This document shows positions 21,117 through 46,260 of a DNA stretch of 64,000 nt, one piece after another (position 1 is the first letter of the stretch; each line of letters begins with the position of its first letter). Location of the stretch: the sequence record DRR723986_646; one strand, given 5' to 3'. The position numbers and the translations under genes were made by a program. The notes under the pieces were generated by a model, which was given only the letters and a program-made list of their open reading frames with translations, made no database searches and was not told where the DNA came from.

Positions 21117-22520
21117 ATGTCAGAGCAAATGACCCCGCAACAGGAAATAGCGATCCTGATCGAGCGCTCCCGCAAGGCGCAGCAGCAGATCGCCGACTAC
21201 ACCCAGGAACAGGTCGACAACCTGATCCGTGCCATGGTCTACGCGGTGGCCCGCGAGGACCGCGCCGAGGAAATCGCCCAGTTTACGGTCGAGGAAACGC
21301 AGCTCGGTAACTACGAGGGCAAATACCTCAAGATCCACCGTAAAACGCGTGCGACCCTGCTCGACATCATCCACGACAAATCGGTCGGCATCATTGAAGA
21401 GGACGCGGAGCGCAACCTGGTGAAGATCGCCAAGCCGGTCGGTGTCATCGGTGCCCTGTCGCCGTCCACCAACCCGGAAGCAACCCCGGTCATCAAGGCC
21501 ATCTCCGCGGTCAAGGGCCGCAACTCGATCATCATCGCGCCGCACCCCCGGGCGAAGCTGACCAACAAGAAAATTGTCGACTACATGCGCGATGCTATCG
21601 AGCGCTGCGGCGGCCCGGCGGACCTGGTCATCGGCATCGAGACGCCGTCTATCGAGTCCACCAACGAACTGATGCGCCAGTGCGATCGTATTCTCGCCAC
21701 CGGCGGCGGTGCGATGGTCAATGCCGCCTACTCCAGCGGCACCCCAGCGCTGGGCGTGGGTGTGGGCAACGCCTGTATCTGTGTGGATGAGAGCGCGAAT
21801 CTTGATGAGGCCGCCGACAAGATCCGGGTGTCGAAAACCCTGGACCTCGCGGCCTCCTGTTCCTCCGATAACTCGGTGCTGGTATTCGAATCCATTTATG
21901 ACGAGTTCCTCGAGAAACTGAAGCACGAGGGCGGCTACGTGGTAAACGAGGAGGAGAAGGCCAAACTGCAGGCAGCCCTGTGGAAAGACGGCGCACTCAA
22001 CGTGAATATCGTCGCCCAGCCGGCCTACAAGATCGCTGGCATGGCCGGTATCGAAATGCCCGAGGGCAAGCAGTTCATCATCGTCCCGGAAACTGGGGCG
22101 GGCCCTGACCACCCCTTCTCCGGCGAAAAGCTGTCGGTGACCATGGCACTGTACAAGGTCAAGGATATTGAGCACGCGGTGCGCCTGACCAACGAGATCC
22201 AGGCCTACCAGGGCCAGGGCCACTCCTGTGGCATCTACTCGTACAATGATGACAACATCATGACCTTCGCCAACGGCACCAAGACCTCACGGGTCATGGT
22301 CAACCAGCCCCAGGCCGCCTCCAATAGCGGCAACCTGTGGAACGGTATGCGCCAGACTTTCTCCCTGGGCTGTGGTTCCTGGGGCAATAACTCGGTCAAC
22401 CACAACATCACCTGGCGCGACCTGATCAACGAGACCTGGGTGTCCCGCCCGTTGGCCACAACCAAGGTGATTCCAAGCGACGAGGAATTGTTCGGCGAGG
22501 TCATGGCCAGGTTCGACTAG
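21117..22520 (+). CDS. CoA-acylating aldehyde dehydrogenase (AdhE-N/EutE/SucD/SauS family)
   Basis: KPVGVIGALSPSTNP, KGRNSIIIAPHPRA, ATGGGAMVNAAYSSGTPALGVGVGN, catalytic-Cys region KTLDLAASCSSDNS, GEKLS, GHS and SLGCGSWG motifs. Confidence 0.88.
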   Translation: MSEQMTPQQEIAILIERSRKAQQQIADYTQEQVDNLIRAMVYAVAREDRAEEIAQFTVEETQLGNYEGKYLKIHRKTRATLLDIIHDKSVGIIEEDAERNLVKIAKPVGVIGALSPSTNPEATPVIKAISAVKGRNSIIIAPHPRAKLTNKKIVDYMRDAIERCGGPADLVIGIETPSIESTNELMRQCDRILATGGGAMVNAAYSSGTPALGVGVGNACICVDESANLDEAADKIRVSKTLDLAASCSSDNSVLVFESIYDEFLEKLKHEGGYVVNEEEKAKLQAALWKDGALNVNIVAQPAYKIAGMAGIEMPEGKQFIIVPETGAGPDHPFSGEKLSVTMALYKVKDIEHAVRLTNEIQAYQGQGHSCGIYSYNDDNIMTFANGTKTSRVMVNQPQAASNSGNLWNGMRQTFSLGCGSWGNNSVNHNITWRDLINETWVSRPLATTKVIPSDEELFGEVMARFD

Positions 22521-22530
22521 ACTCGCCGCC

Positions 22531-23691
22531 ATGGATTTCTCCCTGACTGATGATCAGCAGGCGTTCGTAGAGAGCGCCCGCGCATTCTCCCTGGGCGCGC
22601 TCGCGCCCCACGCGGCAGAGTGGGACGAGAAGGCCCACTTTCCGAAAGACGTTCTCGCCGAAGCCGGTGCACTTGGCTTCATGGGCATGTACACCCCCGA
22701 ATCGGCGGGCGGCCTGGGGCTGCCCCGGCTGGACGCAAGCCTGATTGTCGAGGAACTGGCCCGGGGTTGCACCACGACCACGGCTTTCCTGACGATCCAC
22801 AATATGGCCACCAGCATGATCGGCAAGTACTGCAGTGAGGCAGCCGTCGAGCAGTGGTGTCCCGACCTGGTCGCCGGCAGCAAGCTCGCCTCCTACTGCC
22901 TCACAGAACCCGGCGCAGGTTCCGATGCCGGTTCCCTGCGCACCTCCGCGGTGCTGGAGGGTGACCACTATGTGGTGAATGGCAGCAAGGTGTTCATCTC
23001 CGGCGCCGGAGAGACCGATGTACTGGTCGTGATGACCCGCACCGGCGACGCAGGACCCAAGGGCGTGACCGCGCTGCTGATCCCTGCGGACGCCGAGGGC
23101 GTCGGTTACGGGAAGAAAGAAGCCAAGATGGGCTGGAATGCACAACCCACCCGCATGGTGACCTTTGACAACGTCCGGGTGCCGGTTGGCAACCGACTGG
23201 GCAGCGAGGGTCAGGGTTTTGCGATCGCGATGGAAGGACTGGACGGCGGGCGGATCAATATCGCCACCTGCAGTATCGGCACCGCCCAGCAGGCGCTGGA
23301 AGAAGCAACCGCCTATGTCCAGGAGCGCAAGCAGTTCGGTAGCAGCATCGCCGAATTCCAGGCTACCCAGTTCAAGCTGGCCGACATGCTCACCGAACTG
23401 GTGGCGGCGCGACAGATGGTGCGCCTGGCCGCCAGCAAGCTGGACCAGGGTGATCCCCAGGCCACCACCTATTGCGCCATGGCCAAGCGTTTCGCCACCG
23501 ACGTCGGTTTCGATGTCTGCAACGATGCACTGCAGCTGTTCGGCGGTTACGGCTATATCAAGGAATACCCCATGGAGCGCCATGTGCGCGACACCCGGGT
23601 GCACCAGATTCTCGAGGGCACCAACGAAATCATGCGGGTTATCATTTCCCGCCGTCTGCTGATGGACGGCGCACTGGAGGTTATTAAATGA
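22531..23691 (+). CDS. Acyl-CoA dehydrogenase (isobutyryl-CoA dehydrogenase-like)
   Basis: SYCLTEPGAGSDA, NGSKVFISG, KMGWNAQPT, GGRINIATCS, GGYGY and HQILEGTNEIMR motifs. Confidence 0.92.
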   Translation: MDFSLTDDQQAFVESARAFSLGALAPHAAEWDEKAHFPKDVLAEAGALGFMGMYTPESAGGLGLPRLDASLIVEELARGCTTTTAFLTIHNMATSMIGKYCSEAAVEQWCPDLVAGSKLASYCLTEPGAGSDAGSLRTSAVLEGDHYVVNGSKVFISGAGETDVLVVMTRTGDAGPKGVTALLIPADAEGVGYGKKEAKMGWNAQPTRMVTFDNVRVPVGNRLGSEGQGFAIAMEGLDGGRINIATCSIGTAQQALEEATAYVQERKQFGSSIAEFQATQFKLADMLTELVAARQMVRLAASKLDQGDPQATTYCAMAKRFATDVGFDVCNDALQLFGGYGYIKEYPMERHVRDTRVHQILEGTNEIMRVIISRRLLMDGALEVIK

Positions 23692-24476
23692 GCCTGAGTA
23701 CATCCGACAAGCTGAAAGTTGAGATCAGGGGACACACCGCGCTGGTCACTATCGACAATCCCGCAGCGAACACCTGGGACACGGAGAGCCTGCCGGCCCT
23801 CAAGGACCTGGTGGAAAAGCTCAACGCCGATCGCTCCATCTTCGCTCTGGTGCTGACCGGCGCCGGCGACAAATTTTTCTCCGCGGGCGCTGATCTCAAA
23901 CTGTTTGCAGACGGCGACCCGGAAACGGCCCGGGCGATGGCCGAGTACTTTGGTGCGGGCTTTGAGTGCCTGGCGGATTTCCGCGGGGTCTCCATCGCCG
24001 CGATTAACGGCTTCGCTATGGGTGGCGGCTTGGAAGTCGCCCTCGCCTGTGACATCCGCATCGCCGAGGAACAGGCGCAGATGGCGCTGCCGGAAGCGAA
24101 AGTTGGCCTGTTGCCCTGCGCCGGCGGCACCCAGCGCCTTGCCTGGCTGGTTGGCGAAGGCTGGGCCAAGAAAATGATCATGTGTGGTGAGCGGGTCAAG
24201 GCCGACACCGCGGAGCGTATCGGGCTGGTGGAAGAAGTCGTCCCCACCGGCACGGCGCTGGAGCGGGCGCTGGCGCTGGCCGAACAGGTCGGCGAGCAGA
24301 GCCCGATCTCGGTAACCTTCTGCAAGGAACTGGTACACCGGGCACGGGATTCCGCGATGGAGGGCGCCCTGCCCCTGGAGCGGCAAAAGTTTGTCGACCT
24401 GTTTGGCACTGAAGACCAGAAGGAAGGTGTGAATGCCTTCCTTGAGAAGCGCAAGCCGGTATGGAAGAACTGCTGA
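23688..24476 (+). CDS. Enoyl-CoA hydratase (methacrylyl-CoA hydratase-like)
   Basis: FFSAGADL, AMGGGLE and LPEAKVGLLP motifs; ATGA overlap with the upstream gene. Confidence 0.9.
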   Translation: MSLSTSDKLKVEIRGHTALVTIDNPAANTWDTESLPALKDLVEKLNADRSIFALVLTGAGDKFFSAGADLKLFADGDPETARAMAEYFGAGFECLADFRGVSIAAINGFAMGGGLEVALACDIRIAEEQAQMALPEAKVGLLPCAGGTQRLAWLVGEGWAKKMIMCGERVKADTAERIGLVEEVVPTGTALERALALAEQVGEQSPISVTFCKELVHRARDSAMEGALPLERQKFVDLFGTEDQKEGVNAFLEKRKPVWKNC

Positions 24477-25591
24477 TGAGTTCACCTGTTGTCTTTGCAG
24501 AAGTCGCGGCCGCTGGCGGCAAACTCGGACGCATAAGCCTCAACGTCCCGGAGACGCTGAACTCCCTGACCCTGGAAATGGTAGACCTGCTCCAGGCGCA
24601 GCTCGACGCGTGGCGCGACGACGAGACCATTGGCGCGATCTTCATCGACGGGGCGACTGACAAGGCATTCTGCGCCGGTGGTGACGTGCAGGCCCTGCAC
24701 GCCTCCGCCGTGGCAACGCCAGGCGGGCCCTGCGAATATGCCGAGACGTTTTTCGCCCGGGAATACCGGATGAACTACAGCCTGCATACCTACCCCAAGC
24801 CGTTGATCTGCTGGGGTCATGGCATCGTCATGGGCGGCGGCCTAGGCGTCATGGCCGGCTGTTCCCATCGCATTGTTACTGAGAAAACCCGCATTGCCAT
24901 GCCCGAGGTGACCATCGCCCTGTTCCCGGATGTGGGCGGCAGCTGGTTCCTCAATCACATGCCGGGCAGCGCCGGTGAATTCCTGGCCCTGACCGGGGCA
25001 TCGATCAACGCTGCAGACGCTATCTATACCGGTATCGCCGATCGTTTCATTGCCAGCGAGCACAAGGATGAGGTGCTGGCTGGCCTGCTGGCGCAGAATT
25101 TCAGCAGTGACGACGAGCATAACCACGCCCTGGTTCACCATACCCTGCGTCCCTTCGCCGAACGCAGCAGCGCGAGCTGCCCGCCGGGGCAGGTCGAAGC
25201 GCACATGGCGACGATCAACACACTATGCGATGGCGACAACGTGCACGACATTATCGATAACATTGTCGGACAGGACACGGAAGACCCCTGGCTCGCCCGG
25301 GCCCGGGACAGCCTTGCCCATGGGTCGAGCTTTGCGGCACGCTGGATTCATCGCCAGCTCTGGGAAACGCGACACGCGTCACTGCGGGAAGTGTTCCAGG
25401 CTGAGATTCAGCTGGTGACCAACGTGGTACGCGATCCGGAATTCGCGGAAGGCGTGCGTGCCCTGCTGATCGACAAGGATCGCAATCCCCAGTGGCAGTA
25501 CCCGAGCTCGCGCGACGTGCCGGATGTGGTGCTGGATAAGTTTTTCACAGCGCCCTGGCCAAAGAACCCGCTGGCCGATCTGGGCAGCTAA
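24476..25591 (+). CDS. 3-hydroxyisobutyryl-CoA hydrolase-like crotonase
   Basis: AFCAGGDV, EYRMNY, GIVMGGG, AMPEVTIALFPDVG and FAEGVRALLIDKD motifs; TGATG coupling at 24474-24478. Confidence 0.88.
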   Translation: MSSPVVFAEVAAAGGKLGRISLNVPETLNSLTLEMVDLLQAQLDAWRDDETIGAIFIDGATDKAFCAGGDVQALHASAVATPGGPCEYAETFFAREYRMNYSLHTYPKPLICWGHGIVMGGGLGVMAGCSHRIVTEKTRIAMPEVTIALFPDVGGSWFLNHMPGSAGEFLALTGASINAADAIYTGIADRFIASEHKDEVLAGLLAQNFSSDDEHNHALVHHTLRPFAERSSASCPPGQVEAHMATINTLCDGDNVHDIIDNIVGQDTEDPWLARARDSLAHGSSFAARWIHRQLWETRHASLREVFQAEIQLVTNVVRDPEFAEGVRALLIDKDRNPQWQYPSSRDVPDVVLDKFFTAPWPKNPLADLGS

Positions 25592-25619
25592 CGACAATAA
25601 CCGCAACGAGGACACAGAC

Positions 25620-26504
25620 ATGGCGAAGGTAGCCTTTATCGGCCTGGGGAACATGGGCGGGCCTATGGCCAAGAACCTGGTAAAGGCGGGTCACCAGGTG
25701 ACCGTCTTCGACCTGGTGGCAGAAGCCTGTGCCGACCTGGAGCGTGCCGGAGCCAGCGTCGCCGCCAGCACTGGGGCCGCGGCCCAGGGCGCGGACTACG
25801 TAATTTCCATGTTGCCCGCCGGCAAACACGTCGCCGGGGTTTACCTCGGCGATGACGGCCTGCTGGCCAGTTTAGAGAGCCACGTGACCGTGCTGGATTG
25901 CAGCACGATCGATGCCGCTACGTCCCGTGAGGTCGGTGCAGCTGCTGCCGCCGCAGGTATCGGCTTCATGGACTCGCCGGTATCCGGCGGCGTGGCGGCT
26001 GCGGCCGCCGGCACCCTCGCCTTCATGTGCGGCGGCAGCGCCGACACCTTCGAGAAGGCCCGGCTGATCCTTAAGGACATGGGCAAGAATATATTTCACG
26101 CGGGACCACACGGCGCCGGTCAGGTGGCCAAGGGCTGTAATAACATGCTGTTGGCCATCCACATGATTGGTACCTGCGAAGCACTGGAGATGGGAGCTCG
26201 CAACGGCCTGGACCCAAAGGTGTTATCGGAGATCATGCTCGCCAGTTCCGGGCGCAACTGGTCGCTGGAGGTTTACAACCCCTACCCCGGCGTCATGGAA
26301 AATGCGCCTGCCAGCAACGACTACAAACCCGGCTTCATGGTTGACCTGATGGTCAAGGACCTTGGCCTGGCGATGGGTATTGCCGACAGCTCCGGCGTCG
26401 AGAACCAGATGGGCAAGCTGGCCCAGGCGCTCTTCGAGAAACACCAGCAGGCCGGCAACGGCCAGCGCGATTTTTCCAGCGTGCTGCAGCAATTGCAGGA
26501 CTAG
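25620..26504 (+). CDS. mmsB: 3-hydroxyisobutyrate dehydrogenase
   Basis: FIGLGNMGGPMA, DSPVSGG..AAAGTLAFMCGG, GQVAKGCNNMLL and SSGRNWSLE.YNPYPG motifs; GAGG RBS before ATG 25620. Confidence 0.93.
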   Translation: MAKVAFIGLGNMGGPMAKNLVKAGHQVTVFDLVAEACADLERAGASVAASTGAAAQGADYVISMLPAGKHVAGVYLGDDGLLASLESHVTVLDCSTIDAATSREVGAAAAAAGIGFMDSPVSGGVAAAAAGTLAFMCGGSADTFEKARLILKDMGKNIFHAGPHGAGQVAKGCNNMLLAIHMIGTCEALEMGARNGLDPKVLSEIMLASSGRNWSLEVYNPYPGVMENAPASNDYKPGFMVDLMVKDLGLAMGIADSSGVENQMGKLAQALFEKHQQAGNGQRDFSSVLQQLQD

Positions 26505-26506
26505 GC

Positions 26507-27376
26507 ATGCTGTCGCCCGCGGCGCGACTCGCTGAGCTGGCGGCGCAATCGCGCGTACATTCTACGCCGCTGGGCTCTGGCGCGCTGGTCTGGCGTGAAT
26601 GGCAGGGTCCGGCGTCAGCAAAGAACGCCCCTCCCCTTCTGCTCCTGCACGGCGGCTTCGGCAGCTGGACCCACTGGGCGGCCAACCTACCCGGACTAAT
26701 GCACCAGCGCACTGTGTGGACCCTGGACCTGCCTGGCCTGGGTGAATCCACAGACCTGCCACCGCCGTTCACCACCGAACACTTTGCGGAAGTCATTGCA
26801 GACAGTCTCGACCAGATACTCGGGCAACAGTCGGCGTTTGAACTCGCGGGTTTCAGCTTTGGTGGCATGCTGGGCGCGCACCTTGCGTTACTGGTCGGCG
26901 ACCGCTGTGAAAAACTCGTGCTTATAGGCGCTGCCGGCTGTGGCACCTTGCATCACCAGGTCAGCCTCCTGACCCCACCCGATGACACCACCCCTCCGAT
27001 GGAAGCAGCGGCCATTCACCGGGAGAATCTTGCCCGCTTGATGATCGCCGACCCGGCGAGGATCGACGACCTGGCCATCTACATTCACGCTGATAACCTT
27101 GCCCGACACCGATTCCGCAGCCGCAAGCTGGCTGGCAGCGATGACCTGCTACGCGTGTTGCCTAACATCACGGCGCCGCTGCTCGGAATCTGGGGAGCCC
27201 TGGACCCAACCGCCGGCGGGCAGGCGGACCTGCAAGCCCGCCGGGCGCTGTTCAGTGAGGCGCAGGCTGACAGCGCATTTCATATCCTACCGGGCATCGG
27301 CCACTGGGCGATGTACGAGGCACCTGAGACGGTGAATGCGCTGTTGCTGGGCGAGGCTAGGACAGAAGCCGGGTAA
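26507..27376 (+). CDS. Alpha/beta fold hydrolase
   Basis: LLLHGGFGSWTHW, DLPGLG, nucleophile elbow GFSFGG and GHWAMYE motifs. Confidence 0.87.
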   Translation: MLSPAARLAELAAQSRVHSTPLGSGALVWREWQGPASAKNAPPLLLLHGGFGSWTHWAANLPGLMHQRTVWTLDLPGLGESTDLPPPFTTEHFAEVIADSLDQILGQQSAFELAGFSFGGMLGAHLALLVGDRCEKLVLIGAAGCGTLHHQVSLLTPPDDTTPPMEAAAIHRENLARLMIADPARIDDLAIYIHADNLARHRFRSRKLAGSDDLLRVLPNITAPLLGIWGALDPTAGGQADLQARRALFSEAQADSAFHILPGIGHWAMYEAPETVNALLLGEARTEAG

Positions 27377-28706
27377 CACTGCGCGAGGCCGATATCCTGC
27401 CCTCGTCGAAGAACGCCTCGTGGTTGACTTCAATCCGTGAGAGGTCGTACAGGTAGTTCACCATGATACCGGCAGACTGCTTGCGGCCCTTGGGAGAGAG
27501 ATCCGCGCCACCGTGAATTCTGTGCAGGCGCGCGCCGTTGCCCAGATGGAACCGCGCGACCGGGTCCCGGGGCAGCTCACCGGACTTCACGTTAAGCAGG
27601 TAATGGGCGCACAGGCGGATGTGGGCCTCGTAGACTTCAGAACGAATCACGCTGCCTACCGGCTCCCGCACCGCCGCATCGAGATGCTCTGGGACCAGCT
27701 CACTGAGATCTGCATCCTGCAACCAGCGACAGAACCCGGGCACCGGTGACAGGGTCACGAAGGTCCGCAACCACGGCATCTCACGGCTCAACTCCTCTAC
27801 CACGTTCTTGATCAGGAAGTTGCCAAAGGATACGCCGGCCAGACCGGGATGGCAGTTACTGATGGAGTAGAACACAACCGTTGTCGGTTTATGAGTGACC
27901 GACATGTCTCGCTCCTGCTGCAACAGCGGGGCTATGGCACCAGGCAGCGCGTCAGTGAGCGCAATTTCAACAAACACCAGTGGGTCGTCGTCCAGGGCAG
28001 GATGGAAGAATGCAAAACAGCGGCGGTCCTCGCGCAGCCGGTTACGCAGGTCATCCCAGCCATTAATCTGGTGGACCGCCTCGTAATCAATAATCTTCTC
28101 CAGTACCGATGCCGGCGAATCCCAACTGATCTGCCGCAGCTCAAGAAAGCCCTTGTTGAACCAGGAGATAAACAGGTGCTTCAGATCGCTGTCCACCGGG
28201 CGCAGCTCGGGCATGGTTTTCAGGTGGGGTAGCAGGTCTCCACGCATGGCTACCAGGCAGGCAGTGCCGTCAGGTGCCATATTGATCCGGCGAAACAGTT
28301 TCTGCCTGGGCGCCTCAACGCTCCGGGCAATGCTGGCCAGGGCCTCCGCTCCACCCTCATCACGGTAGCGTTCCGCCGCAGCCAGAACCTGCTCCCGATC
28401 GACGTCGAAATCGTTCAGCAAGTGATCAAAAAACGCGGTTCGCTCGCCTTCCGGCAACTCGCGGTACGCGCGGGTCACCTCGCTGGCCAATGCCAGGCCG
28501 GAAGCCTCGCCACGATGATCCAGAAGTTCGCGGCACTGCGATACCAGTCGGTCGAGACAACCGGCCATACCGGCTGACGCCGAACGGCGCCGGGCGAGGA
28601 TTTCCCGGCCGGCGTCCAGCACCGAGTTAAACGTCCTCTCGAGCGCGGTGAAGCGCGACGGCGCCTGCTCCCGCGCAGGGTCTATTTCGGGCAATTCCGA
28701 AGACAT
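27357..28706 (-). CDS. Malonyl-CoA decarboxylase
   Basis: WFNKGFL, LEKIIDYEAVH, DRRCFAFFHP, FYSISNC, GVSFGNFLIK, FVTLSPVPGF and DPVARFHLGNGA motifs. Confidence 0.93.
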   Translation of the reverse strand: MSSELPEIDPAREQAPSRFTALERTFNSVLDAGREILARRRSASAGMAGCLDRLVSQCRELLDHRGEASGLALASEVTRAYRELPEGERTAFFDHLLNDFDVDREQVLAAAERYRDEGGAEALASIARSVEAPRQKLFRRINMAPDGTACLVAMRGDLLPHLKTMPELRPVDSDLKHLFISWFNKGFLELRQISWDSPASVLEKIIDYEAVHQINGWDDLRNRLREDRRCFAFFHPALDDDPLVFVEIALTDALPGAIAPLLQQERDMSVTHKPTTVVFYSISNCHPGLAGVSFGNFLIKNVVEELSREMPWLRTFVTLSPVPGFCRWLQDADLSELVPEHLDAAVREPVGSVIRSEVYEAHIRLCAHYLLNVKSGELPRDPVARFHLGNGARLHRIHGGADLSPKGRKQSAGIMVNYLYDLSRIEVNHEAFFDEGRISASRSVTRLLS

Positions 28707-28935
28707 GAAACAATCCTTCGTTAAACACAAGCGTGCGCGTCATCTGCGCGTCCAAGGGTCTAACATAACCCAAGCATGACCCCCCAGCCACTAACACGGG
28801 AGGGTTAGGCCCCTCCCCCGGACTACCGTCGCGCTGGCCGCGGGAGCATGATCAAGCACCAGTCGTCGCGGCGACAGGTGTGACACCTTGATCTAAACTG
28901 AAGCCGGGTGAAACCTCGTGAGTTATGAATAAAAA

Positions 28936-29490
28936 ATGAACACCTTAAGAACCAGCGATTCATCCCCCCTTGTTATCTCAGAGCTGTCTCTCGCACCTTG
29001 GCCGGGCTACCTCGGATTGACGATCTGTCCCGGTAAAAAGGACCGTGATAGGCACTGGGATCGTGATCTGACCACAGACATTACTGTAATTCAGGGCTGG
29101 GGCGCGTCAACAGTAGTCACATTGATCGAGGATCACGAGCTTACGTTTCTAAAGGTCCAGGGACTTGGAGAAGCCGTGCGCGCTGCCGGTATGACTTGGC
29201 ATCACCTGCCAATAGTGGATGTAAGTATTCCTGACCAGCGCTTCAAGCAAGGCTGGCAGTACAATCGAGCCAGGCTTTATGAGCAGCTAAGTGAGAATCG
29301 TCGGATACTGATTCACTGTCGAGGCGGTCTCGGGCGGACTGGTTTGGTTGCCGGCGTAATCATGGTAGAGCTCGGATTCTCACCCGAGGAAGCCATTCAT
29401 CGGGTGCGTATGGCCCGCCCCCATGCGATAGAAACCTTCGATCAGGAAGAATATGTACGCAGTACGCGGAGGCTAGCTTCACATGAATGA
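28936..29490 (+). CDS. Dual-specificity/PTP-like phosphatase (CDKN3 family)
   Basis: CPGKK, WHHLPIVD, P-loop HCRGGLGRTG and AIET..QE motifs. Confidence 0.9.
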   Translation: MNTLRTSDSSPLVISELSLAPWPGYLGLTICPGKKDRDRHWDRDLTTDITVIQGWGASTVVTLIEDHELTFLKVQGLGEAVRAAGMTWHHLPIVDVSIPDQRFKQGWQYNRARLYEQLSENRRILIHCRGGLGRTGLVAGVIMVELGFSPEEAIHRVRMARPHAIETFDQEEYVRSTRRLASHE

Positions 29491-30418
29491 GCTCTCTCGG
29501 TATAGCGGTGCGCTGACCGGACTAGCGGTAGGAGATGCGCTCGGCACAGCGCTGGAGTTTAAGCAGCCAGGGACCTTTGAGCCCATCGAAGACATCATCG
29601 GGGGTGGGCCATTCGGCTTGCAGCCAGGAGAGTGGACAGACGATACATCTATGGCCCTCTGCCTCGCCAAGAGCTTGGTGGAAAAGCAAGGATTCGACGC
29701 CAACGACCAGATGGCGCGCTACGTGCGTTGGTGGAAGCAAGGCTACATGAGCTCCAATGGCAGATGCTTTGATATCGGAGTCACAACATCACAGGCATTA
29801 TCGAGATTTTTGAAAAGTGGAGACCCTTTCTCGGGAGACACAGAAACTTTTTCAGCTGGCAACGGCTCTCTCATGCGATTGGCACCAATTCCCATGGCAT
29901 TTGCGTCAATGGAAAACACTTTGTGGGAGATTGCCGCGAAAAGTTCAGCAACAACCCATGCCACACGTACCTGTCTGGATGCCTGCAGCTTTTATGCTTC
30001 ACTGATTGCAATGGCTCTAAAGGGTATCGATAAGGCGGCTATCCTCGATCCCACCGCAATCCCTGCCAAGCTACGTATACCGGAGGCCGCCAGTGAAGTA
30101 TTGGCGGTTGCTGAGGGAAGCTATAAGCACAAAAAGCCACCAGAGATTCGAGGATCGGGCTACGTGGTTGATTCTTTGGAAGCGTCTCTCTGGGCTTTCT
30201 ATCACTCGGATACCTTTGAGCAGGGAGCTCTAATGGCTGTTAACCTGGGCGATGACGCCGATACGACCGGCGCAATCTACGGTCAACTTGCTGGCGCTTA
30301 CTATGGAATTGAAGGCATACCTGAAAAGTGGAGGAATATCATCGTAAACAACGCCTTAATGAAAGAACTCGCTGAATCCTTATTCACGCTTTCTCAAGGT
30401 ATTGTTGATTCTCGGTAA
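29483..30418 (+). CDS. ADP-ribosylglycohydrolase family protein
   Basis: GDALG, WTDDTSM, CFDIG, GNGSLMRLAP, TTH and VNLGDDADTTGAIYGQLAGA motifs; overlaps the phosphatase stop. Confidence 0.93.
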   Translation: MNELSRYSGALTGLAVGDALGTALEFKQPGTFEPIEDIIGGGPFGLQPGEWTDDTSMALCLAKSLVEKQGFDANDQMARYVRWWKQGYMSSNGRCFDIGVTTSQALSRFLKSGDPFSGDTETFSAGNGSLMRLAPIPMAFASMENTLWEIAAKSSATTHATRTCLDACSFYASLIAMALKGIDKAAILDPTAIPAKLRIPEAASEVLAVAEGSYKHKKPPEIRGSGYVVDSLEASLWAFYHSDTFEQGALMAVNLGDDADTTGAIYGQLAGAYYGIEGIPEKWRNIIVNNALMKELAESLFTLSQGIVDSR

Positions 30419-31135: not shown

Positions 31136-31206
31136 GTTGACTCGGGTCAACCTTTTAGCAAGTGCATTCGATAGGCCTTGAAAGATTTTTGCCGGATTTC
31201 TATTGT
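31136..31206 (+). promoter_or_regulatory. Sigma70-type promoter with upstream palindromic operator
   Basis: -35 TTGAAA (31178-31183), 17-nt spacer, -10 TATTGT (31201-31206); palindrome GTTGAC-TCGG-GTCAAC at 31136-31151. Confidence 0.6.
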
Positions 31207-31211
31207 TTTAA

Positions 31212-31290
31212 CCGTCAAAGGCACAACCGACGCGAGTCGGTGTCGCAAAGCTGCGGGTCTTTCTTAACAGAAGATAGCCGGGCTTCCATA
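31212..31290 (+). ncRNA. Cyclic di-GMP-I (GEMM) riboswitch
   Basis: AAAGGCACAACC-GAC-GCGA-GTC-GGTGTCGCAAAGCTGCGGGTCT...AGATAGCCGGGCTTCC: P2 with a GNRA tetraloop, GCAAAG junction, GGTCT/GATAGCC receptor in P3, terminal CC. Lies 5' of a secreted-protein gene. Confidence 0.85.
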
Positions 31291-31353
31291 CTCGTAATAT
31301 TCACTCAATTGGACAGTCTTTCTCTTGAAAGACACGATATGGGAAACATGCCA

Positions 31354-31890
31354 ATGAAGAAATTATCAGGAGCGTTAGCGGCGGGAACAATCGCGATAGC
31401 AAGTACTCAGGCACTGGCTATGGGTGCTATTAGTGGGGGCGGTCAGCTCATCGAAGACGGCAACAAAATTAGCTTCGGTGTCTGGGCAAACGATGTGCCT
31501 GGAGTAAGTGTCGAGGGCGAGATTCAGGTGAATTTTCATAGTACATCAACGTTCAGCAAGAAGAAGTTTCATGGAACTATGGTCGGCACCCCGAACTTCT
31601 TCCCACCCAACAGTGAGACGTGCAATTCGGCAGCCAACGTTACCTTTGCGGGAACGTTTGATGGCGAGCCGGGTTGGGAAGTAATCCTTCGAGTCGGTGA
31701 AGCGGGGCCTCCCGGCCAGGCTACAATGACGGCCTTCGACACTGTACGAATAGAATTATTCGATCCTGCTTCAGCTAAATGGTATGACACCGATGGGGGA
31801 GATTTTTTACGACAAAGCTCATGTGTTGGATCTGCCAGAACTGGGCTAGATCGCGGTAACGTTACTATAGAAATCGCGGAGCCGATCTAG
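31354..31890 (+). CDS. Hypothetical secreted beta-rich protein (~178 aa)
   Basis: Signal peptide MKKLSGALAAGTIAIASTQALA, two Cys, terminator downstream. Alternative ATGs at 31339 and 31348. The 31162 ORF start would run through the riboswitch. Confidence 0.75.
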   Translation: MKKLSGALAAGTIAIASTQALAMGAISGGGQLIEDGNKISFGVWANDVPGVSVEGEIQVNFHSTSTFSKKKFHGTMVGTPNFFPPNSETCNSAANVTFAGTFDGEPGWEVILRVGEAGPPGQATMTAFDTVRIELFDPASAKWYDTDGGDFLRQSSCVGSARTGLDRGNVTIEIAEPI

Positions 31891-41611: not shown

Positions 41612-41719
41612 CCCGCCTCCTCCGATGGGCTAAACCCACGATTTTAACCAAAGCGCCCCCGGCAAGCAGCTTTTTGCCAGTTTGACATTAGTTGGACAGC
41701 GCCCTACAGTCCTCGCCGG

Positions 41720-41880
41720 TGCCAGGTGCCTGCCGGTCCAGCTGATGGACCTGGGCAGGTTAAATGGGAAGTGTGGTGAGGCCAGAGCCGAAGCCACCGC
41801 TGCCCCCGCAACGGTATACAGCATAGCTGTGAGCCCGATACCTGCCTGGCATGTCGCAACGATGGAGCGGAGGGCTTCAT
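41720..41880 (+). ncRNA. Cobalamin riboswitch (compact form)
   Basis: P1 TGCCAGG/CCTGGCA, AAATGGGAAGTGTGGTG, GCTGCCCCCGCAACGGTA, B12 box GAGCCCGATACCTGCC, downstream P13 hairpin ATGGAGC-GGAGG-GCTTCAT; sits upstream of btuB. Confidence 0.92.
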
Positions 41881-41963
41881 ACAAGGTTGCCCGGTGCACG
41901 CGTGCACCGCGTTCCCTGATTCCCTCCCTCGATCGCCACCTGTTCGGCAATTGGGGACTACTC

Positions 41964-43817
41964 ATGCCACGCACTCATTCCGCAACCCTGGCCGCGTTCG
42001 TCCTGGCGTGTTCTGCTACCGCCGCGGCGGAGCCCGCACTCGAGGAGATCGTTGTGACCTCCTCCCGGGTAGCCATGCCACTGCGCGAGGTCGGCACATC
42101 TATCTCCGTGCTGGACCAACAGCAGATCGAACAACTCGGTTTCAACTCGCTATACGAGGTGTTGCGCACCCAACCTTCCGTTTCCGTGAGTAATACCGGG
42201 GGGCCCGGCAAGGCAGCCACCCTCAGAATCCGCGGCGAAGAGGGCTACCGCACCCTGGTGTTGCTCGACGGCATCGATATCTCGGATACCTCAGGTCCGC
42301 AGGTCAGTCCACGAATGGAACAGCTGCTCAGTAGCGGGATCGAGCGGGTCGAAATCCTGCGCGGGCCTCAGGGCCTGGTGTACGGGGCTGACGCAGGTGG
42401 CGTGGTGAATATTCGCACCCAGGCCAGTGGTGACGGCCTCGGTGGGCGGCTGTCAGCCGAAGGCGGACGCTACGGCACCCGCCAGTATGCAGCGAGTATC
42501 GGCGCTGCCGGCGAGATTGGCGACTTCCACCTGTCGGCAACCGACTACGAAACCGACGGCTTTAACTCCCGCAGTACCGACACCAGTCCCGGGGATAACG
42601 ACGGTTTCGACAACACCACCTTACACGGGCGGGCCCGCTGGCAACTGTCAGAGCAGTTGGACCTGGAGTTCGTGCTGCGCGACGTGGAGGGGCAGAACCA
42701 GTTCGACGACTGCTTCACCGTCGACAGCTTCGCGCCGACCAACGACTGCGCCGATGACTACGAACAGCAGGCCTGGCGCCTGGGCCTGGGTTATCGCGCC
42801 GGCGAACTCCAGCACCAGCTCGATTACAGCCGCAGCAGCACCGAGCGCAGATTCTTTTCCGAAGGGCAGCCCAGCTTCATGACCGAAGGTGAGCTCGAGC
42901 GGGTCAGCTACGTGGGTGCCTTCGGCAGCGGAGACGCCTTGCGCCTGGTCTACGGCGCTGACCTGGAAAAGGAATCCATCGATGACGGTACCTTTGACGA
43001 GGAGCGAGACCAGGCCGGGTACTTCCTGGAATGGCAGGGCAACTTCGGTAATGCGCTCTACCTGACCGCCGGCGCCCGCTACGATGACAACGATGACTTC
43101 GGCACCCACCTGTCCTACCGCAGCAGCCTGGCCTATCTGGTCCCGCTTACCGGCGGAGAGCTGAAGTTCAAGGGTAGCTGGGGAACCGGATTCCGGGCAC
43201 CCAGCCTGTATGAGATAGCCTACAACCGCGGCTTCTTCGCCTTCCCACCGGCATCGGAGACTGCGCTGACTGAGGAAGAAAGCGAGGGTTACGATCTGGG
43301 ACTGGCCTGGACCGGCGAGCGCGGGCTCTATCTTGAAGCCACCTACTTCGATCAATCGGTCAGCGATGAGATATTTTTCGACCTGGCAGGTTTCTCGGGT
43401 TACCTCCAGGGCAGCGGCGAAGCCAGTTCCTCCGGTCTCGAGCTCGCCGCGAGCTGGCCACTGCTGGCGAGCCTGTCGTTAAGCGGCAACTATACCTATA
43501 ACGACAGCGACACCAGCGACGGATCCGCGCGCGCGTTCCGCCCCCGCCACCTCGGCAATCTGGGCATCAGCTGGCTGGCGCCCGGCGAGCGGTTCAGCCT
43601 CGGACTGAATCTAAGACTGGCGCGCGACGCAGACAATACCGACGGCACCGCGCTGGATGACTACGAGGTGGTGGATCTGAACGCGCGGTTCACCCTGCTG
43701 GCTGGCCTGGAAATTTACGGCAGAATCGAGAACGCGCTGGACGAGGACTACCAGGAAGTTCCCACCTACAATACAGCCAAACGCGCCGCCTATGCCGGCC
43801 TGCGCTACAGCTTTTGA
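41964..43817 (+). CDS. btuB: TonB-dependent vitamin B12 receptor
   Basis: LEEIVVTSSR, ERVEILRGPQ, GFRAPSL motifs and terminal RYSF; follows a B12 riboswitch and precedes cobO-btuCDF. Confidence 0.88.
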   Translation: MPRTHSATLAAFVLACSATAAAEPALEEIVVTSSRVAMPLREVGTSISVLDQQQIEQLGFNSLYEVLRTQPSVSVSNTGGPGKAATLRIRGEEGYRTLVLLDGIDISDTSGPQVSPRMEQLLSSGIERVEILRGPQGLVYGADAGGVVNIRTQASGDGLGGRLSAEGGRYGTRQYAASIGAAGEIGDFHLSATDYETDGFNSRSTDTSPGDNDGFDNTTLHGRARWQLSEQLDLEFVLRDVEGQNQFDDCFTVDSFAPTNDCADDYEQQAWRLGLGYRAGELQHQLDYSRSSTERRFFSEGQPSFMTEGELERVSYVGAFGSGDALRLVYGADLEKESIDDGTFDEERDQAGYFLEWQGNFGNALYLTAGARYDDNDDFGTHLSYRSSLAYLVPLTGGELKFKGSWGTGFRAPSLYEIAYNRGFFAFPPASETALTEEESEGYDLGLAWTGERGLYLEATYFDQSVSDEIFFDLAGFSGYLQGSGEASSSGLELAASWPLLASLSLSGNYTYNDSDTSDGSARAFRPRHLGNLGISWLAPGERFSLGLNLRLARDADNTDGTALDDYEVVDLNARFTLLAGLEIYGRIENALDEDYQEVPTYNTAKRAAYAGLRYSF

Positions 43818-43827
43818 GGAACAGTAA

Positions 43828-44445
43828 ATGAGTGATGGCGACGAAACCAGGAAGGCAGCCAAACACAAGGCGGCGATGGAAAAGCAGAAAGCGTCTGTAG
43901 ACGCGAGCATCGCGGCCGCCGACCTGGAACGTGGCGTCGCCATCCTGCTCACCGGCAATGGCAAGGGTAAAACGAGTTCCGCCTTCGGGATGATCATGCG
44001 TGCGCTGGGTTACGGGCACAAGGTCGGCGTTGTGCAATTCATCAAGGGCGAACAGCTCTCCGGCGAAGAACTGTACCTGCGCGATCATTGTCCGCAGGTC
44101 GAGTTTCACCAGATGGGCACCGGCTTCACCTGGGATACCCAGGACCGTAGCGGTGATATCGCGGCCGCCCGGCGCACCTGGGACCTGGCGAAGCCCATGC
44201 TCGCCGACCCCAGCTTTGACCTGGTTGTAATGGATGAAATCACCTACATGATCGCCTACGACTACCTGCCGGAAGACGAAATCCTGGACGCGATCAGTAG
44301 CCGACCCCGCGAGCAGAGTGTGGTGGTAACCGGGCGCGGTGGCGGTGCGGCGCTGCAGGCCATCATGGACACGGTGTCCGAGGTAAAGGACGTCAAACAT
44401 GCCTTCAACGTCGGGATCAAGGCGCGCAAGGGCGTTGACTATTAA
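43828..44445 (+). CDS. cobO: Cob(I)yrinic acid a,c-diamide adenosyltransferase
   Basis: TGNGKGKTSSAFG, VQFIKG, GFTW, DE, TGR and KHAF..GIKARKGVDY motifs. Confidence 0.95.
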   Translation: MSDGDETRKAAKHKAAMEKQKASVDASIAAADLERGVAILLTGNGKGKTSSAFGMIMRALGYGHKVGVVQFIKGEQLSGEELYLRDHCPQVEFHQMGTGFTWDTQDRSGDIAAARRTWDLAKPMLADPSFDLVVMDEITYMIAYDYLPEDEILDAISSRPREQSVVVTGRGGGAALQAIMDTVSEVKDVKHAFNVGIKARKGVDY

Positions 44446-45481
44446 GCAGCGCACAGAGGGGCGCCCGCTGACCCCGCGGGGGCTGCTGATCCTGCAACTG
44501 GTATTGTTACCGGCCGTTATCCTGGTGGGCCTGGCCAGTGGCGCGGTAGCAATTCCCTGGCAGGACGTGATCGCAGCGCTGGCCGGCAGCGACAGTGACA
44601 GCCAGGCCGAACTCATCGTTCGCCAGATCCGCCTGCCAAGGGTCCTGCTCGCCGGCATTATGGGTGCGAGCCTCGCGATCTGTGGCGCGGCAACGCAAGG
44701 CCTGTTCCGCAACCCCCTGGCTGACCCGTCGCTGATCGGTGTTACTGCGGGAGCATCACTGGGCGCGGCGGCCGTGATCGTTGGCGGTGCCCAGCTACTG
44801 CCAGGCTTCCTCGCCCTCGGTGTGGTATCAGCGGGCGCGTTCATCGGCGGCGTGGTTGCAGTGCTGGTGGTCTACCGGCTTGCTACCGGCAGCAGCGGCA
44901 CGTCGGTGGCGACCATGCTGCTGGCCGGTATTGCGATTACGGCCCTTGCCGGGGCCTGCAGCAGCCTGCTCGAGTTCTATGCGGACAATGCCATGCTGCG
45001 CCGGATCAGCCTGTGGAAAATGGGCGGACTGGACGGCGCCAGTGTGCCTGCGCTGGCACTCGGCGGCGCTGTCACCCTGCTGCTGTGCACTACGTTGCCG
45101 CGCTATGCGCCTGCCCTCGATGCGCTGCTGCTGGGTGAATCCGAAGCCCGGCACCTGGGGATAGATGTGGGTCGCACCAAACTGATGCTGGTGCTGCTGG
45201 TCGCCGTGGGCGTGGGTACATCGGTTGCCCTGGTTGGCACCATCGCTTTCGTTGGCCTGGTGGTACCACATATCGTACGCCTGCTCATCGGGCCCAACCA
45301 TCAGGCCCTGCTGCCACTCTCCGCGCTGGCCGGCGCCATCTTACTGGTGCTTGCAGACACCCTGTCGCGGGTCGTGATGGCACCCACCGAGCTGCCGGTC
45401 GGCATCGTTACTGCCATCCTCGGGTTTCCCTTCTTTATCTCCCTGCTGCGTCAGCGCCATCACTACGGGATGCAGTCATGA
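44435..45481 (+). CDS. btuC: Cobalamin/iron-chelate ABC permease (FecCD family)
   Basis: IRLPRV, QGLFRNPLADP, LLGESEARHLG, FVGLVVPH and ELPVG motifs; start uncertain (TTG 44435 chosen). Confidence 0.85.
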   Translation: MTIKQRTEGRPLTPRGLLILQLVLLPAVILVGLASGAVAIPWQDVIAALAGSDSDSQAELIVRQIRLPRVLLAGIMGASLAICGAATQGLFRNPLADPSLIGVTAGASLGAAAVIVGGAQLLPGFLALGVVSAGAFIGGVVAVLVVYRLATGSSGTSVATMLLAGIAITALAGACSSLLEFYADNAMLRRISLWKMGGLDGASVPALALGGAVTLLLCTTLPRYAPALDALLLGESEARHLGIDVGRTKLMLVLLVAVGVGTSVALVGTIAFVGLVVPHIVRLLIGPNHQALLPLSALAGAILLVLADTLSRVVMAPTELPVGIVTAILGFPFFISLLRQRHHYGMQS

Positions 45482-46257: not shown

Positions 46258-46260
46258 CCA

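Follow-up and report, generated by a model that had tools for sequence, protein, structure and literature searches.

The nearest characterised relatives of the CoA-acylating aldehyde dehydrogenase (ALDH) described here, SauS and SucD, are non-decarboxylating enzymes. In the solved complex of the Clostridium kluyveri SucD (CkSucD), Lys70 and Ser243 coordinate the distal carboxylate and the His364/Thr365 pair protonates the leaving CoA, according to the structural account in PMC10249356. Conversion between malonyl-CoA and malonate semialdehyde without decarboxylation is also described in PMC12041015 for the malonyl-CoA reductases (EC 1.2.1.75), which are of the SDR type in Chloroflexus and of the aspartate-semialdehyde-dehydrogenase type in Sulfolobales. 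We compared these systems with an operon found in a 64,000-nucleotide stretch of DNA (the window). The results, all of them comparative, support the core of an earlier, sequence-only reading of the window, in which a non-decarboxylating ALDH would replace mmsA and its product would pass to malonyl-CoA decarboxylase (MCD) or to a B12-dependent mutase.

Organization of the valine operon

The first gene of the operon (21117..22520, + strand) encodes a CoA-acylating ALDH of the SauS/SucD/AdhE class (P0001, 467 aa; Pfam Aldedh, 82 bits). It is followed on the + strand by an isobutyryl-CoA dehydrogenase-like acyl-CoA dehydrogenase (ACAD, 22531..23691) with matches to all three Pfam ACAD domains, an enoyl-CoA hydratase in the methacrylyl-CoA hydratase role (ECH, 23688..24476; ECH_1 201 bits, PRK09076 435 against a cut-off of 286), a 3-hydroxyisobutyryl-CoA hydrolase-type ECH_2 protein (HIBCH, 24461..25591; ECH_2 378.7 bits, PRK05617 349.6 against a cut-off of 274), the 3-hydroxyisobutyrate dehydrogenase MmsB (25620..26504; TIGR01692 401 against a cut-off of 291.6) and an alpha/beta-fold hydrolase (26507..27376; Abhydrolase_1 and Abhydrolase_6 matches). 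Gaps and overlaps between these genes were, in order, +10, -4, -16, about +28 and +2 nt. The open reading frame of MmsB runs from 25524 and the N-terminus MAKVAFIGLG starts at its residue 33; the true start is likely to be 25620. On the - strand, a convergent MCD gene (27357..28730; Pfam MCD 313.6 bits, MCD_N 92.2 bits) shares 20 nt with the hydrolase gene (27357-27376). Open reading frames and family profiles thus confirmed the gene run, the convergent MCD and the overlap as first read.

The profile search found no above-cut-off NCBIfam model for the alpha/beta hydrolase. The hydrolase gene adjoined mmsB at 24 of 67 ALDH-type loci versus 0 of 23 mmsA-type loci, a difference that was not significant on independent pairs. 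The btuB/cobO genes said to lie nearby were located at 41.7-47.2 kb of the window, 13 kb from the operon. This region contains a cobalamin riboswitch (41707-41863) and genes for a TonB-dependent receptor, CobO (PF02572) and FecCD/ABC/binding proteins.

Exchange of mmsA and ALDH at the head of the operon

All 26 of the mmsA-headed Halieaceae loci examined had the order mmsA-ACAD-ECH-HIBCH-mmsB, with downstream genes 62-87% identical to those of the window. Orthologues of ACAD, 63-89% identical, stood behind ALDH heads and mmsA heads alike. The order ALDH-ACAD-ECH-HIBCH-mmsB was complete in 64 of the best 80 related genome loci, so the arrangement is not due to chance. Among the other 16 loci, 12 were cut by contig ends, 2 had no ECH match, 1 had no operon and 1 ended too early to tell. 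The same ALDH-headed order was present at 22 of 31 further loci of the order sample (17/20 and 5/11). On the tree of ACAD and ECH (100 rows) the head gene switched 8 times or more, with well-supported branches forcing 5 or more of the switches.

The 121 Halieaceae genomes divided into 78 with ALDH only, 35 with mmsA only, 5 with both and 3 with neither. Of five relatives with a name or a complete genome, four gave top MMSDH scores of 257-285 bits (cut-off 448.5). Within the 64-kb window, tblastn with an operon mmsA as query (E <= 1e-5) found no mmsA-like sequence; the absence of mmsA refers to the genomes of the relatives and to this window. Some members of the ALDH clade (L137, L138, L139, L144 and L035) did not adjoin valine genes.

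The ALDH therefore occupies the slot of mmsA, which is a functional slot and not homology. This position in an otherwise orthologous operon, together with the near-complementary presence of the two genes, agrees with the replacement of mmsA that had been claimed. We put the probability that the ALDH took over the job of MmsA in the valine operon, jointly with the carboxyl-keeping pathway proposed below, at roughly 0.6. The operon slot and the complementary distribution are equally compatible with an ALDH that replaced MmsA yet decarboxylates, in which the thioacyl-enzyme would lose CO2 before the attack of CoA and yield propionyl-CoA or acetyl-CoA. We regard such an enzyme as unlikely, and its further evidence is given with the residues and with MCD.

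Family and tree placement of the ALDH

Among the NCBIfam models the ALDH matched SauS (NF047625) best, but its 514 bits did not reach the cut-off of 600; the N-terminal half of AdhE came next with 446 bits, then the EutE type with 376 bits. All matches of P0001 from the fifth rank down scored below 75 bits, and TIGR01722 (MMSDH, cut-off 448.5) was absent among the best 25 of 30 NCBIfam matches. An AptA-linked relative of the ALDH, from locus L196, scored 502.6 bits with the SauS model (cut-off 600).

In a quick IQ-TREE search, SauS formed a clade of 25 rows (SH-aLRT 97) and the window ALDH fell in a separate clade of 24 rows (SH-aLRT 100), which lies within the sister group of the SauS clade; both are inside one group with an SH-aLRT of 100. 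The comparison with SauS and SucD that had been suggested thus placed the ALDH outside the clade of context-verified SauS, and SucD outside the SauS-like group. The window ALDH was 34-43% identical to 14 proteins above the SauS cut-off, 13 of which lie in a sulfoacetate gene context. Around these 14 proteins, 11 loci adjoin an AMP-ligase, 12 adjoin TctC and some an Xsc-like TPP enzyme. Such a context (ligase, transporter, Xsc) was not found at the window or at any valine-type locus. The alignment showed 32 positions that discriminate the window clade from the SauS clade, including D251/E, R78/L, Q399/H and R412/P. By its tree placement the ALDH is a member of a distinct CoA-acylating ALDH clade, sister to SauS. 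Identity with SauS itself was rejected on the score below 600, the separate sister clade and the lack of sulfoacetate gene context.

Genes of this clade carry the public names 'sulfoacetaldehyde dehydrogenase' (JGI) or 'aldehyde dehydrogenase family protein'. The former name, and SauS as the best NCBIfam model, would fit an enzyme that acts on sulfoacetaldehyde, or on isobutyraldehyde to feed isobutyryl-CoA, while a generic ALDH oxidises methylmalonate semialdehyde. Every genome has many ALDH paralogues, and an acylating enzyme that makes isobutyryl-CoA would suit the position upstream of ACAD. However, the score is below the cut-off, the clade stands apart (SH-aLRT 100) from all 13 SauS with ligase/TctABC/Xsc context, the 32 positions separate it from SauS, and no valine-type locus has a sulfoacetate context. 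In addition, Lys76 and Ser249 favour an acidic substrate over isobutyraldehyde, and the AptA-ALDH-MCD clusters described below offer neither aldehyde a place. We therefore consider a role on either aldehyde decidedly improbable.

Conserved residues of the ALDH

The motifs PSTNP, AAYSSGTPALGVGVGN, SLGCGSWG and CSSD noted earlier were all present in the ALDH translation. The catalytic Cys248 was invariant in all 73 aligned rows and aligned to Cys242 of CkSucD (8cei). Lys76 and Ser249 aligned to Lys70 and Ser243 of CkSucD and were found together in 23/23 rows of the window clade and 19/19 SauS rows, while all four AdhE rows had Ala at the position of Lys76. By analogy, we propose that the substrate's carboxylate is held by Lys76 and Ser249. 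His369 and Ser370 aligned to CkSucD His364 and Thr365 in a by-hand mapping on the alignment.

The Asp reported at the CSSD position (D251), where Glu is usual, was present in 23/23 clade members, in contrast to Glu in 19/19 rows of the SauS clade and 4/4 AdhE rows. Asp251 is thus a signature of the clade. When 17 signature positions were compared, one AptA-linked ALDH matched at 16 of them and the other at all 17. The changes of the clade near the catalytic Cys (D251 for E; Q399, R412 and R78) could serve a new step such as decarboxylation. However, no characterised member of this class of acylating ALDH is known to decarboxylate, which counts against that explanation.

Association with malonyl-CoA decarboxylase and AptA

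Among the Halieaceae genomes, MCD was found in 71 of the 78 with ALDH only versus 4 of the 35 with mmsA only (Fisher p = 8e-17 without a correction for kinship). The association is confounded by kinship, with only 4 independent pairs on supported branches, of which about 3 went the same way and 0 the opposite way (sign test p 0.125-0.6). In the order-wide sample, MCD was present in 16/35 genomes with the ALDH versus 32/216 without it. A MatB-like ligase lay beside 3 of 18 MCD loci away from the operon, which indicates that some MCDs serve malonate use.

The beta-alanine transaminase AptA (NF052567; score 692.9, cut-off 500) was followed by a decarboxylating MmsA paralogue at 11 of 30 loci, by ALDH and then MCD at 2 loci, and by MCD alone at 2 loci, the last in genomes with an ALDH-headed valine operon. 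With a DNA identity of 84.5%, the two AptA-MCD loci were treated as a single lineage.

The co-occurrence with MCD and the AptA loci suggest that the product of the ALDH may keep its carboxyl group, as (methyl)malonyl-CoA. A decarboxylating ALDH would make MCD pointless directly behind AptA-ALDH or AptA, and the tracking of the ALDH by MCD in Halieaceae would not be expected; the 19 of 35 ALDH-bearing genomes of the order sample without MCD fit such an enzyme. In the sequence-only reading the product could be decarboxylated by the adjacent MCD. This stood in so far as MCD tracks the ALDH in Halieaceae and clusters with it behind AptA, but the adjacency itself was not conserved, being found at 11 of 63 assessable ALDH-type loci and also at 1 of 23 mmsA-type loci (L096), and order-wide fewer than half of the ALDH-bearing genomes had MCD.

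Proposed pathway

The gene identities, the exchange of the head gene in place, the phyletic patterns and the conserved residues are observed, whereas the substrate and cofactor of the ALDH, the survival of the carboxyl group and what becomes of the product are inferred. Isobutyryl-CoA derived from valine would be converted to methylmalonate semialdehyde by ACAD, the hydratase, the hydrolase and MmsB. The carboxylate of the semialdehyde would be held by Lys76 and Ser249 of the ALDH, a thiohemiacetal would form on Cys248 and its hydride would pass to NAD(P)+. The intact acyl group would then be handed to CoA, giving methylmalonyl-CoA and not propionyl-CoA and CO2; by the CIP rules the (S)-semialdehyde should give (R)-methylmalonyl-CoA. 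A B12-dependent mutase would convert this product to succinyl-CoA, bypassing the propionyl-CoA carboxylase step and its ATP. The methylmalonyl-CoA mutase invoked in the earlier reading (TIGR00641) was found in 119 of 121 Halieaceae genomes; being universal, it does not discriminate between the routes. The same ALDH would also act on malonate semialdehyde that arises from such sources as beta-alanine and 3-hydroxypropionate, and a separate MCD would turn the resulting malonyl-CoA into acetyl-CoA.

We lean slightly towards an undescribed natural activity, that of a CoA-acylating (methyl)malonate-semialdehyde dehydrogenase that depends on NAD(P)+ and does not decarboxylate, which would descend from a sulfoacetaldehyde-type ancestor and have repeatedly displaced MmsA in a major clade of marine Gammaproteobacteria. 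In this reading the displacement creates a shortcut from valine to succinyl-CoA that leads directly to the mutase substrate and spares the ATP of propionyl-CoA carboxylase, and for C3 substrates the one-step MmsA reaction would be split between the ALDH and MCD.

The ALDH might instead work reductively, as a (methyl)malonyl-CoA reductase that supplies the semialdehyde or 3-hydroxy acids, and SauS and SucD do reduce acyl-CoA physiologically according to PMC10413351 and PMC10249356. However, the partners ACAD, hydratase, hydrolase and MmsB are catabolic, the gene stands in for MmsA, an oxidative enzyme, and MCD downstream of the ALDH in the AptA clusters suits the oxidative direction, which makes a reductive role very improbable.

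If the oxidative, carboxyl-keeping pathway is correct, nature has a second solution for the last step that textbooks give for valine catabolism, with another enzyme class and another product, and so it has for the catabolism of beta-alanine, thymine and 3-hydroxypropionate. Pathway reconstruction would change for Halieaceae (the OM60/NOR5 group), a family abundant in coastal waters; automated tools would call their valine degradation incomplete, with the genes labelled 'sulfoacetaldehyde dehydrogenase' or generic ALDH. Valine use would be bound more tightly to vitamin B12, and malonyl-CoA decarboxylase would gain a catabolic role. Metabolic engineers would have a natural enzyme between methylmalonyl-/malonyl-CoA and the semialdehyde.

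Comparison with known systems

The malonyl-CoA reductases have folds unrelated to the window ALDH, are reductive in CO2 fixation and have no link to valine or beta-alanine catabolism. SauS shares Cys248, Lys76, Ser249 and PSTNP with the window ALDH, and it acts on sulfoacetaldehyde, an isostere of malonate semialdehyde. Partial activity on malonate is reported for the sulfoacetate-CoA ligase SauCD (PMC10413351). However, SauS is found with a SauT-like ligase, TctABC, GntR and an Xsc-like TPP enzyme, in contrast to the valine operon of the window ALDH and the AptA and MCD context also seen in its clade.

Among solved structures the closest match is the C. kluyveri SucD (PDB 8CEI/8CEJ/8CEK; 337.6 bits, E = 1e-99), a succinyl-CoA reductase or acylating succinate-semialdehyde dehydrogenase that does not decarboxylate. 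The window ALDH conserves its catalytic Cys and His, its Thr (as Ser) and both carboxylate-binding residues, Lys70 and Ser243. SucD differs in that it branches outside the SauS-like group, takes a C4 and not a C3 acid, is NADPH-dependent and reductive in vivo, and has no valine context.

MmsA (MSDH; TIGR01722, EC 1.2.1.27) shares with the window ALDH the operon position, the four downstream genes, the bacterial family and the proposed substrate. However, MmsA comes from a different branch of the ALDH superfamily and frees CO2 to give propionyl-CoA, while the window ALDH would leave the carboxyl group in place.

Gene content of the window locus

Window ORFs and family profiles showed six closely packed genes on the + strand followed by one convergent gene, the same run that had been described from the sequence alone. 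The head gene encodes P0001, an acylating aldehyde dehydrogenase (ALDH; 21117-22520, +) that carries the motifs quoted in that sequence-only reading. It is followed by genes for an acyl-CoA dehydrogenase (ACAD; 22531-23691, +), an enoyl-CoA hydratase (ECH; 23688-24476, +), an ECH_2/3-hydroxyisobutyryl-CoA hydrolase (HIBCH; 24461-25591, +; PRK05617, 349.6 bits against a cut-off of 274), MmsB (+; TIGR01692, 401 against 291.6), whose ORF opens at 25524 with the real start probably at 25620, and an alpha/beta hydrolase (26507-27376, +). The convergent malonyl-CoA decarboxylase gene (MCD; 27357-28730, -) overlaps the alpha/beta hydrolase gene by 20 nt. A promoter and terminator scan gave counts no higher than in shuffled sequences.

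The initial observation was confirmed in all particulars, including the btuB/cobO genes said to lie nearby: a cobalamin riboswitch, TonB receptor, CobO and BtuCDF-like genes were found at 41.7-47.2 kb. The riboswitch (RF00174, 59.7 bits) lies 5' of the TonB-dependent receptor, CobO and FecCD/ABC/binding-protein genes (41707-47160, +), together a cluster for the uptake and salvage of B12. The receptor starts later than the listed 41682, because the listed ORF overlaps the riboswitch.

Between these two gene groups, the 28936-30418 (+) region encodes a dual-specificity phosphatase-like protein matching the CDKN3, PTP-SAK and 'polymorphic toxin system DSP-PTPase' families. An ADP-ribosylglycohydrolase gene lies 3' of the phosphatase gene with an 8-nt overlap, and its product is Tri1-like but scores 327.8 against a cut-off of 490. 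Just past this gene the G+C content drops from about 0.62 to 0.49-0.54 (profile of 30-38 kb), which suggests an acquired island. A c-di-GMP-I riboswitch (RF01051) at 31210-31290 (+) scored 61.8 bits (gathering score 35). Its aptamer sits at the beginning of an ORF listed as 31162-31890, with a weak BBP7 porin-like hit as its sole match; the real start codon must lie 3' of the aptamer.

Exchange of the operon head gene among relatives

Genome-level tests were done on relatives of the window. A scan of species-representative genomes gave 544 relatives, the best 80 of which were 78-86% identical and almost all labelled Halieaceae. The cultured species Halioglobus japonicus, Luminiphilus syltensis and Pseudohalioglobus lutimaris are among the carriers of the operon. 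The complete ALDH-ACAD-ECH-HIBCH-mmsB order was present in 64 of these best 80; of the other 16, 12 were cut at contig or locus ends, two had no ECH match, one had no operon and one ended too early to judge.

To call head genes in a family sample of 121 genomes, we used TIGR01722 > 448.5 bits for canonical mmsA, the gene of the decarboxylating methylmalonate-semialdehyde dehydrogenase, and E <= 1e-100 for P0001-like proteins. Canonical mmsA was found in 40 and a P0001-like protein in 83 genomes, with ALDH only in 78, mmsA only in 35, both in five and neither in three. All 26 loci around mmsA in mmsA-only genomes had the order mmsA-ACAD-ECH-HIBCH-mmsB, and their four tail genes shared 62-87% identity with those of the window. 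The ALDH thus occupies exactly the position that mmsA has in an otherwise orthologous operon, and the replacement proposed from the sequence alone stands. In genomes with both, the extra mmsA was a 41-49% identical paralogue elsewhere, or in one case (G058) a lone 75% copy.

On a FastTree phylogeny of concatenated ACAD and ECH (100 rows, 75 ALDH-headed and 25 mmsA-headed), the head gene switched at least eight times, with at least five switches forced by well-supported branches. Exchange between ALDH and mmsA therefore occurred repeatedly, as expected for two genes with the same pathway job.

Across the order, a homologue at least 65% identical was present in 35 of 251 sampled genomes. The full operon was found in 17 of the first 20 order-level loci and in five of 11 further ones, with much more diverged tails. 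Among loci L195, L200, L201 and L178, some order-level genomes had the ALDH followed by a HIBCH-type hydrolase only, and one genome carried two adjoining ALDH copies in opposite orientations, with 77% and 40% identity to P0001. Two MAG loci labelled Alphaproteobacteria (L045 and L079) had an ALDH 79% identical to P0001 heading a far more distant tail (ACAD 58%, HIBCH 32-33%, mmsB 47-50%, no ECH match), which points either to mis-binning or to a move of the ALDH into the operon of another lineage. Clade members that lie away from valine operons (L137, L138, L144, L035 and L139) had as neighbours an ADH_N_2 oxidoreductase, ACAD, RPE65, AraC and TonB receptors, none of them informative.

Distribution of malonyl-CoA decarboxylase and mutase

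MCD (PF05292) was found in 79 of the 121 Halieaceae genomes: 71/78 with ALDH only, 4/35 with mmsA only, 3/5 with both and 1/3 with neither. Fisher's test of MCD against ALDH-only or mmsA-only status gave an odds ratio of 79 (p = 8e-17), kinship not being corrected for. The operon tree offered four independent supported pairs, about three pointing the same way and none the opposite, a number of pairs too low for significance. The link between MCD and the ALDH was weaker across the order than in the family, with MCD in 16/35 ALDH-bearing genomes against 32/216 others by hand comparison.

The sequence-only reading had noted MCD next to the operon. This adjacency is not conserved across Halieaceae: the operon itself was conserved in the best loci, but MCD adjoined it in only 11 of 63 assessable ALDH-type loci (and in one of 23 mmsA-type loci, L096). 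The alpha/beta hydrolase gene followed mmsB in 24/67 assessable ALDH-headed loci versus 0/23 mmsA-headed ones. Covariation of the hydrolase or of MCD adjacency with the head gene, with only four independent pairs, showed no significance. Since a MatB-like ligase adjoins MCD in three of 18 MCD loci away from the operon, some MCDs serve malonate use. At three off-operon loci in Halieaceae (L240, L246 and L258 in G001, G006 and G009), a short-chain dehydrogenase gene lies directly beside MCD; it could encode a 3-hydroxypropionate/malonate-semialdehyde oxidoreductase feeding the proposed ALDH route.

The B12-dependent mutase, on which one branch of the sequence-only reading depends, was present (TIGR00641) in 119 of 121 relatives' genomes and is for that reason uninformative between routes. 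These limiting MCD and mutase results contradict no part of the model.

Gene clusters with beta-alanine transaminase

At one order-level locus (L196, G685), a class-III aminotransferase gene is followed in the same direction by an ALDH gene (product 65% identical to P0001) and MCD. The aminotransferase is an AptA equivalog of the beta-alanine:pyruvate type (NF052567, 692.9 against 500). The trio recurs in another genome, G608 (L202), which also has an ALDH-headed valine operon (L177). AptA was matched in 59 of the 251 order-sample genomes, and the best 30 AptA loci were examined. The next gene was a decarboxylating MmsA paralogue in 11, the ALDH in two and MCD directly in two (G562 and G650, both with an ALDH-headed valine operon); the remaining 15, some of them short loci, had none of the three. 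The ALDH was present in one of the 11 AptA-MmsA genomes.

At these best 30 AptA loci, then, no decarboxylase followed the decarboxylating MmsA, and a decarboxylase followed the ALDH. An ALDH that replaced MmsA but itself decarboxylated would account for the head-gene exchange equally, but set against this pattern we consider it unlikely. Of the 17 signature positions checked, one AptA-linked ALDH has 16 and the other all 17. At 84.5% DNA identity, the two AptA-MCD loci are treated as a single lineage, and both trios may go back to one event. A metagenome scan with the AptA-linked ALDH gave no match beyond its own sequence (L239).

Relation of P0001 to SauS and its acyl pocket

The best NCBIfam model for P0001 was SauS, the acylating sulfoacetaldehyde dehydrogenase, at 514 bits, under the cut-off of 600; next came the AdhE N-terminal half (446) and the EutE type (376). 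The SauS cut-off was also missed by the ten nearest full-length representatives in a library of 1.84 billion proteins (400-565 bits). In public records, proteins of the P0001 type are named either 'aldehyde dehydrogenase family protein' or 'sulfoacetaldehyde dehydrogenase'. In a sample across the class, 20 of 400 genomes had a protein above the cut-off; the 14 of these proteins examined were 34-43% identical to P0001, with an AMP-forming ligase nearby in 11/14; other neighbours were TctC/TctA genes for a transporter and a GntR regulator, plus an Xsc-like TPP enzyme at some loci.

We placed P0001 in a 73-row ALDH tree from a quick IQ-TREE search, with SH-aLRT values as branch support. One SauS-like group held 59 rows (100); it excluded the SucD-like and AdhE rows and contained a SauS clade of 25 rows (97), with all 13 context-verified SauS proteins, and its sister group of 33 rows (93). 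Within that sister group, P0001 and all valine-operon relatives fell in a 24-row clade of their own (100). An identification of P0001 as SauS was rejected on its score, its separate clade and the lack of a sulfoacetate context. The two clades were discriminated by 32 alignment positions, among them (window/SauS) I73/N, R78/L, N100/G, I126/N, H143/S, M200/N, L244/N, D251/E, Y374/H, Q399/H, R412/P and Q413/F. The Asp in CSSD singled out by the sequence-only reading is a true clade signature, since it was D in 23/23 window-clade rows versus E in 19/19 SauS rows.

The nearest solved structure was the Clostridium kluyveri succinyl-CoA reductase CkSucD (8cei, 337.6 bits), with AdhE next. In its solved complex, the acyl group sits on Cys242 in a pocket lined by Thr395, its distal carboxylate is bound by Lys70 and Ser243, and CoA receives a proton from His364/Thr365 (PMC10249356). 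Hand mapping of the printed alignment placed these residues at P0001 Cys248, Lys76, Ser249, His369/Ser370 and Ala400, the last adjoined by the clade-specific Q399. Cys248 was invariant in all rows, and Lys76 and Ser249 in the window clade and SauS; in AdhE the Lys is replaced by Ala. The predicted Lys76/Ser249 pocket fits an acidic C3 substrate, and its residues speak against acetaldehyde or isobutyraldehyde. Malonate semialdehyde is an isostere of sulfoacetaldehyde. The Bilophila sulfoacetate-CoA ligase is reported to be partly active on malonate (PMC10413351). Kinship with SauS leaves some room for an ALDH acting on another substrate, but given the predicted pocket, the separate clade and the AptA-ALDH-MCD clusters we regard this as improbable. 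That P0001 works reductively, as SauS and SucD do physiologically, seems very improbable for the head enzyme of a valine operon.

SauS and SucD, the nearest characterised relatives, hand on the intact acyl group. Beside the AptA gene clusters and the MCD distribution in the family, this is the third comparative line bearing on carboxyl retention.

Proposed route

ACAD, the hydratase, the hydrolase and MmsB would convert valine-derived isobutyryl-CoA to methylmalonate semialdehyde. The ALDH would oxidise this on Cys248 and transfer the acyl group whole to CoA. The methylmalonyl-CoA so formed would be turned into succinyl-CoA by the B12-dependent mutase. Malonate semialdehyde would likewise yield malonyl-CoA through the ALDH, and MCD would convert it to acetyl-CoA. 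For methylmalonyl-CoA the mutase suffices; MCD is needed only on the C3 branch. By CIP priority, the (S)-semialdehyde would correspond to (R)-methylmalonyl-CoA, the mutase substrate, in which case the route would bypass both the epimerase and propionyl-CoA carboxylase, with its one ATP. From sequence and gene context, we put the probability of the whole reading, a non-decarboxylating ALDH in the role of mmsA with its product passing to the mutase or MCD, at about 0.6.

Comparison with known systems

The acylating ALDH class and malonyl-CoA reductase chemistry are already known. Our full-text literature search on (methyl)malonate-semialdehyde enzymes and routes to malonyl-CoA, the one from DMSP/3-HP included, gave no description of the proposed enzyme or route. 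The available text of a 2025 review of the ALDH superfamilies leaves sulfoacetaldehyde unmentioned and names, for the acylating class, only succinyl-CoA and propionyl-CoA reductases (PMC12041015). In C. necator each of the three MmsA enzymes decarboxylates, and mcd was reported to have no part (PMC6572756). Recruitment of the class to the MmsA step, its repeated in-situ displacement of mmsA and the split of the reaction between ALDH and MCD appear to be new. SauS occurs with a ligase, a Tct transporter, GntR and at some loci an Xsc-like enzyme; the context of P0001 and most of its relatives is the valine operon or, at two loci, AptA with MCD.
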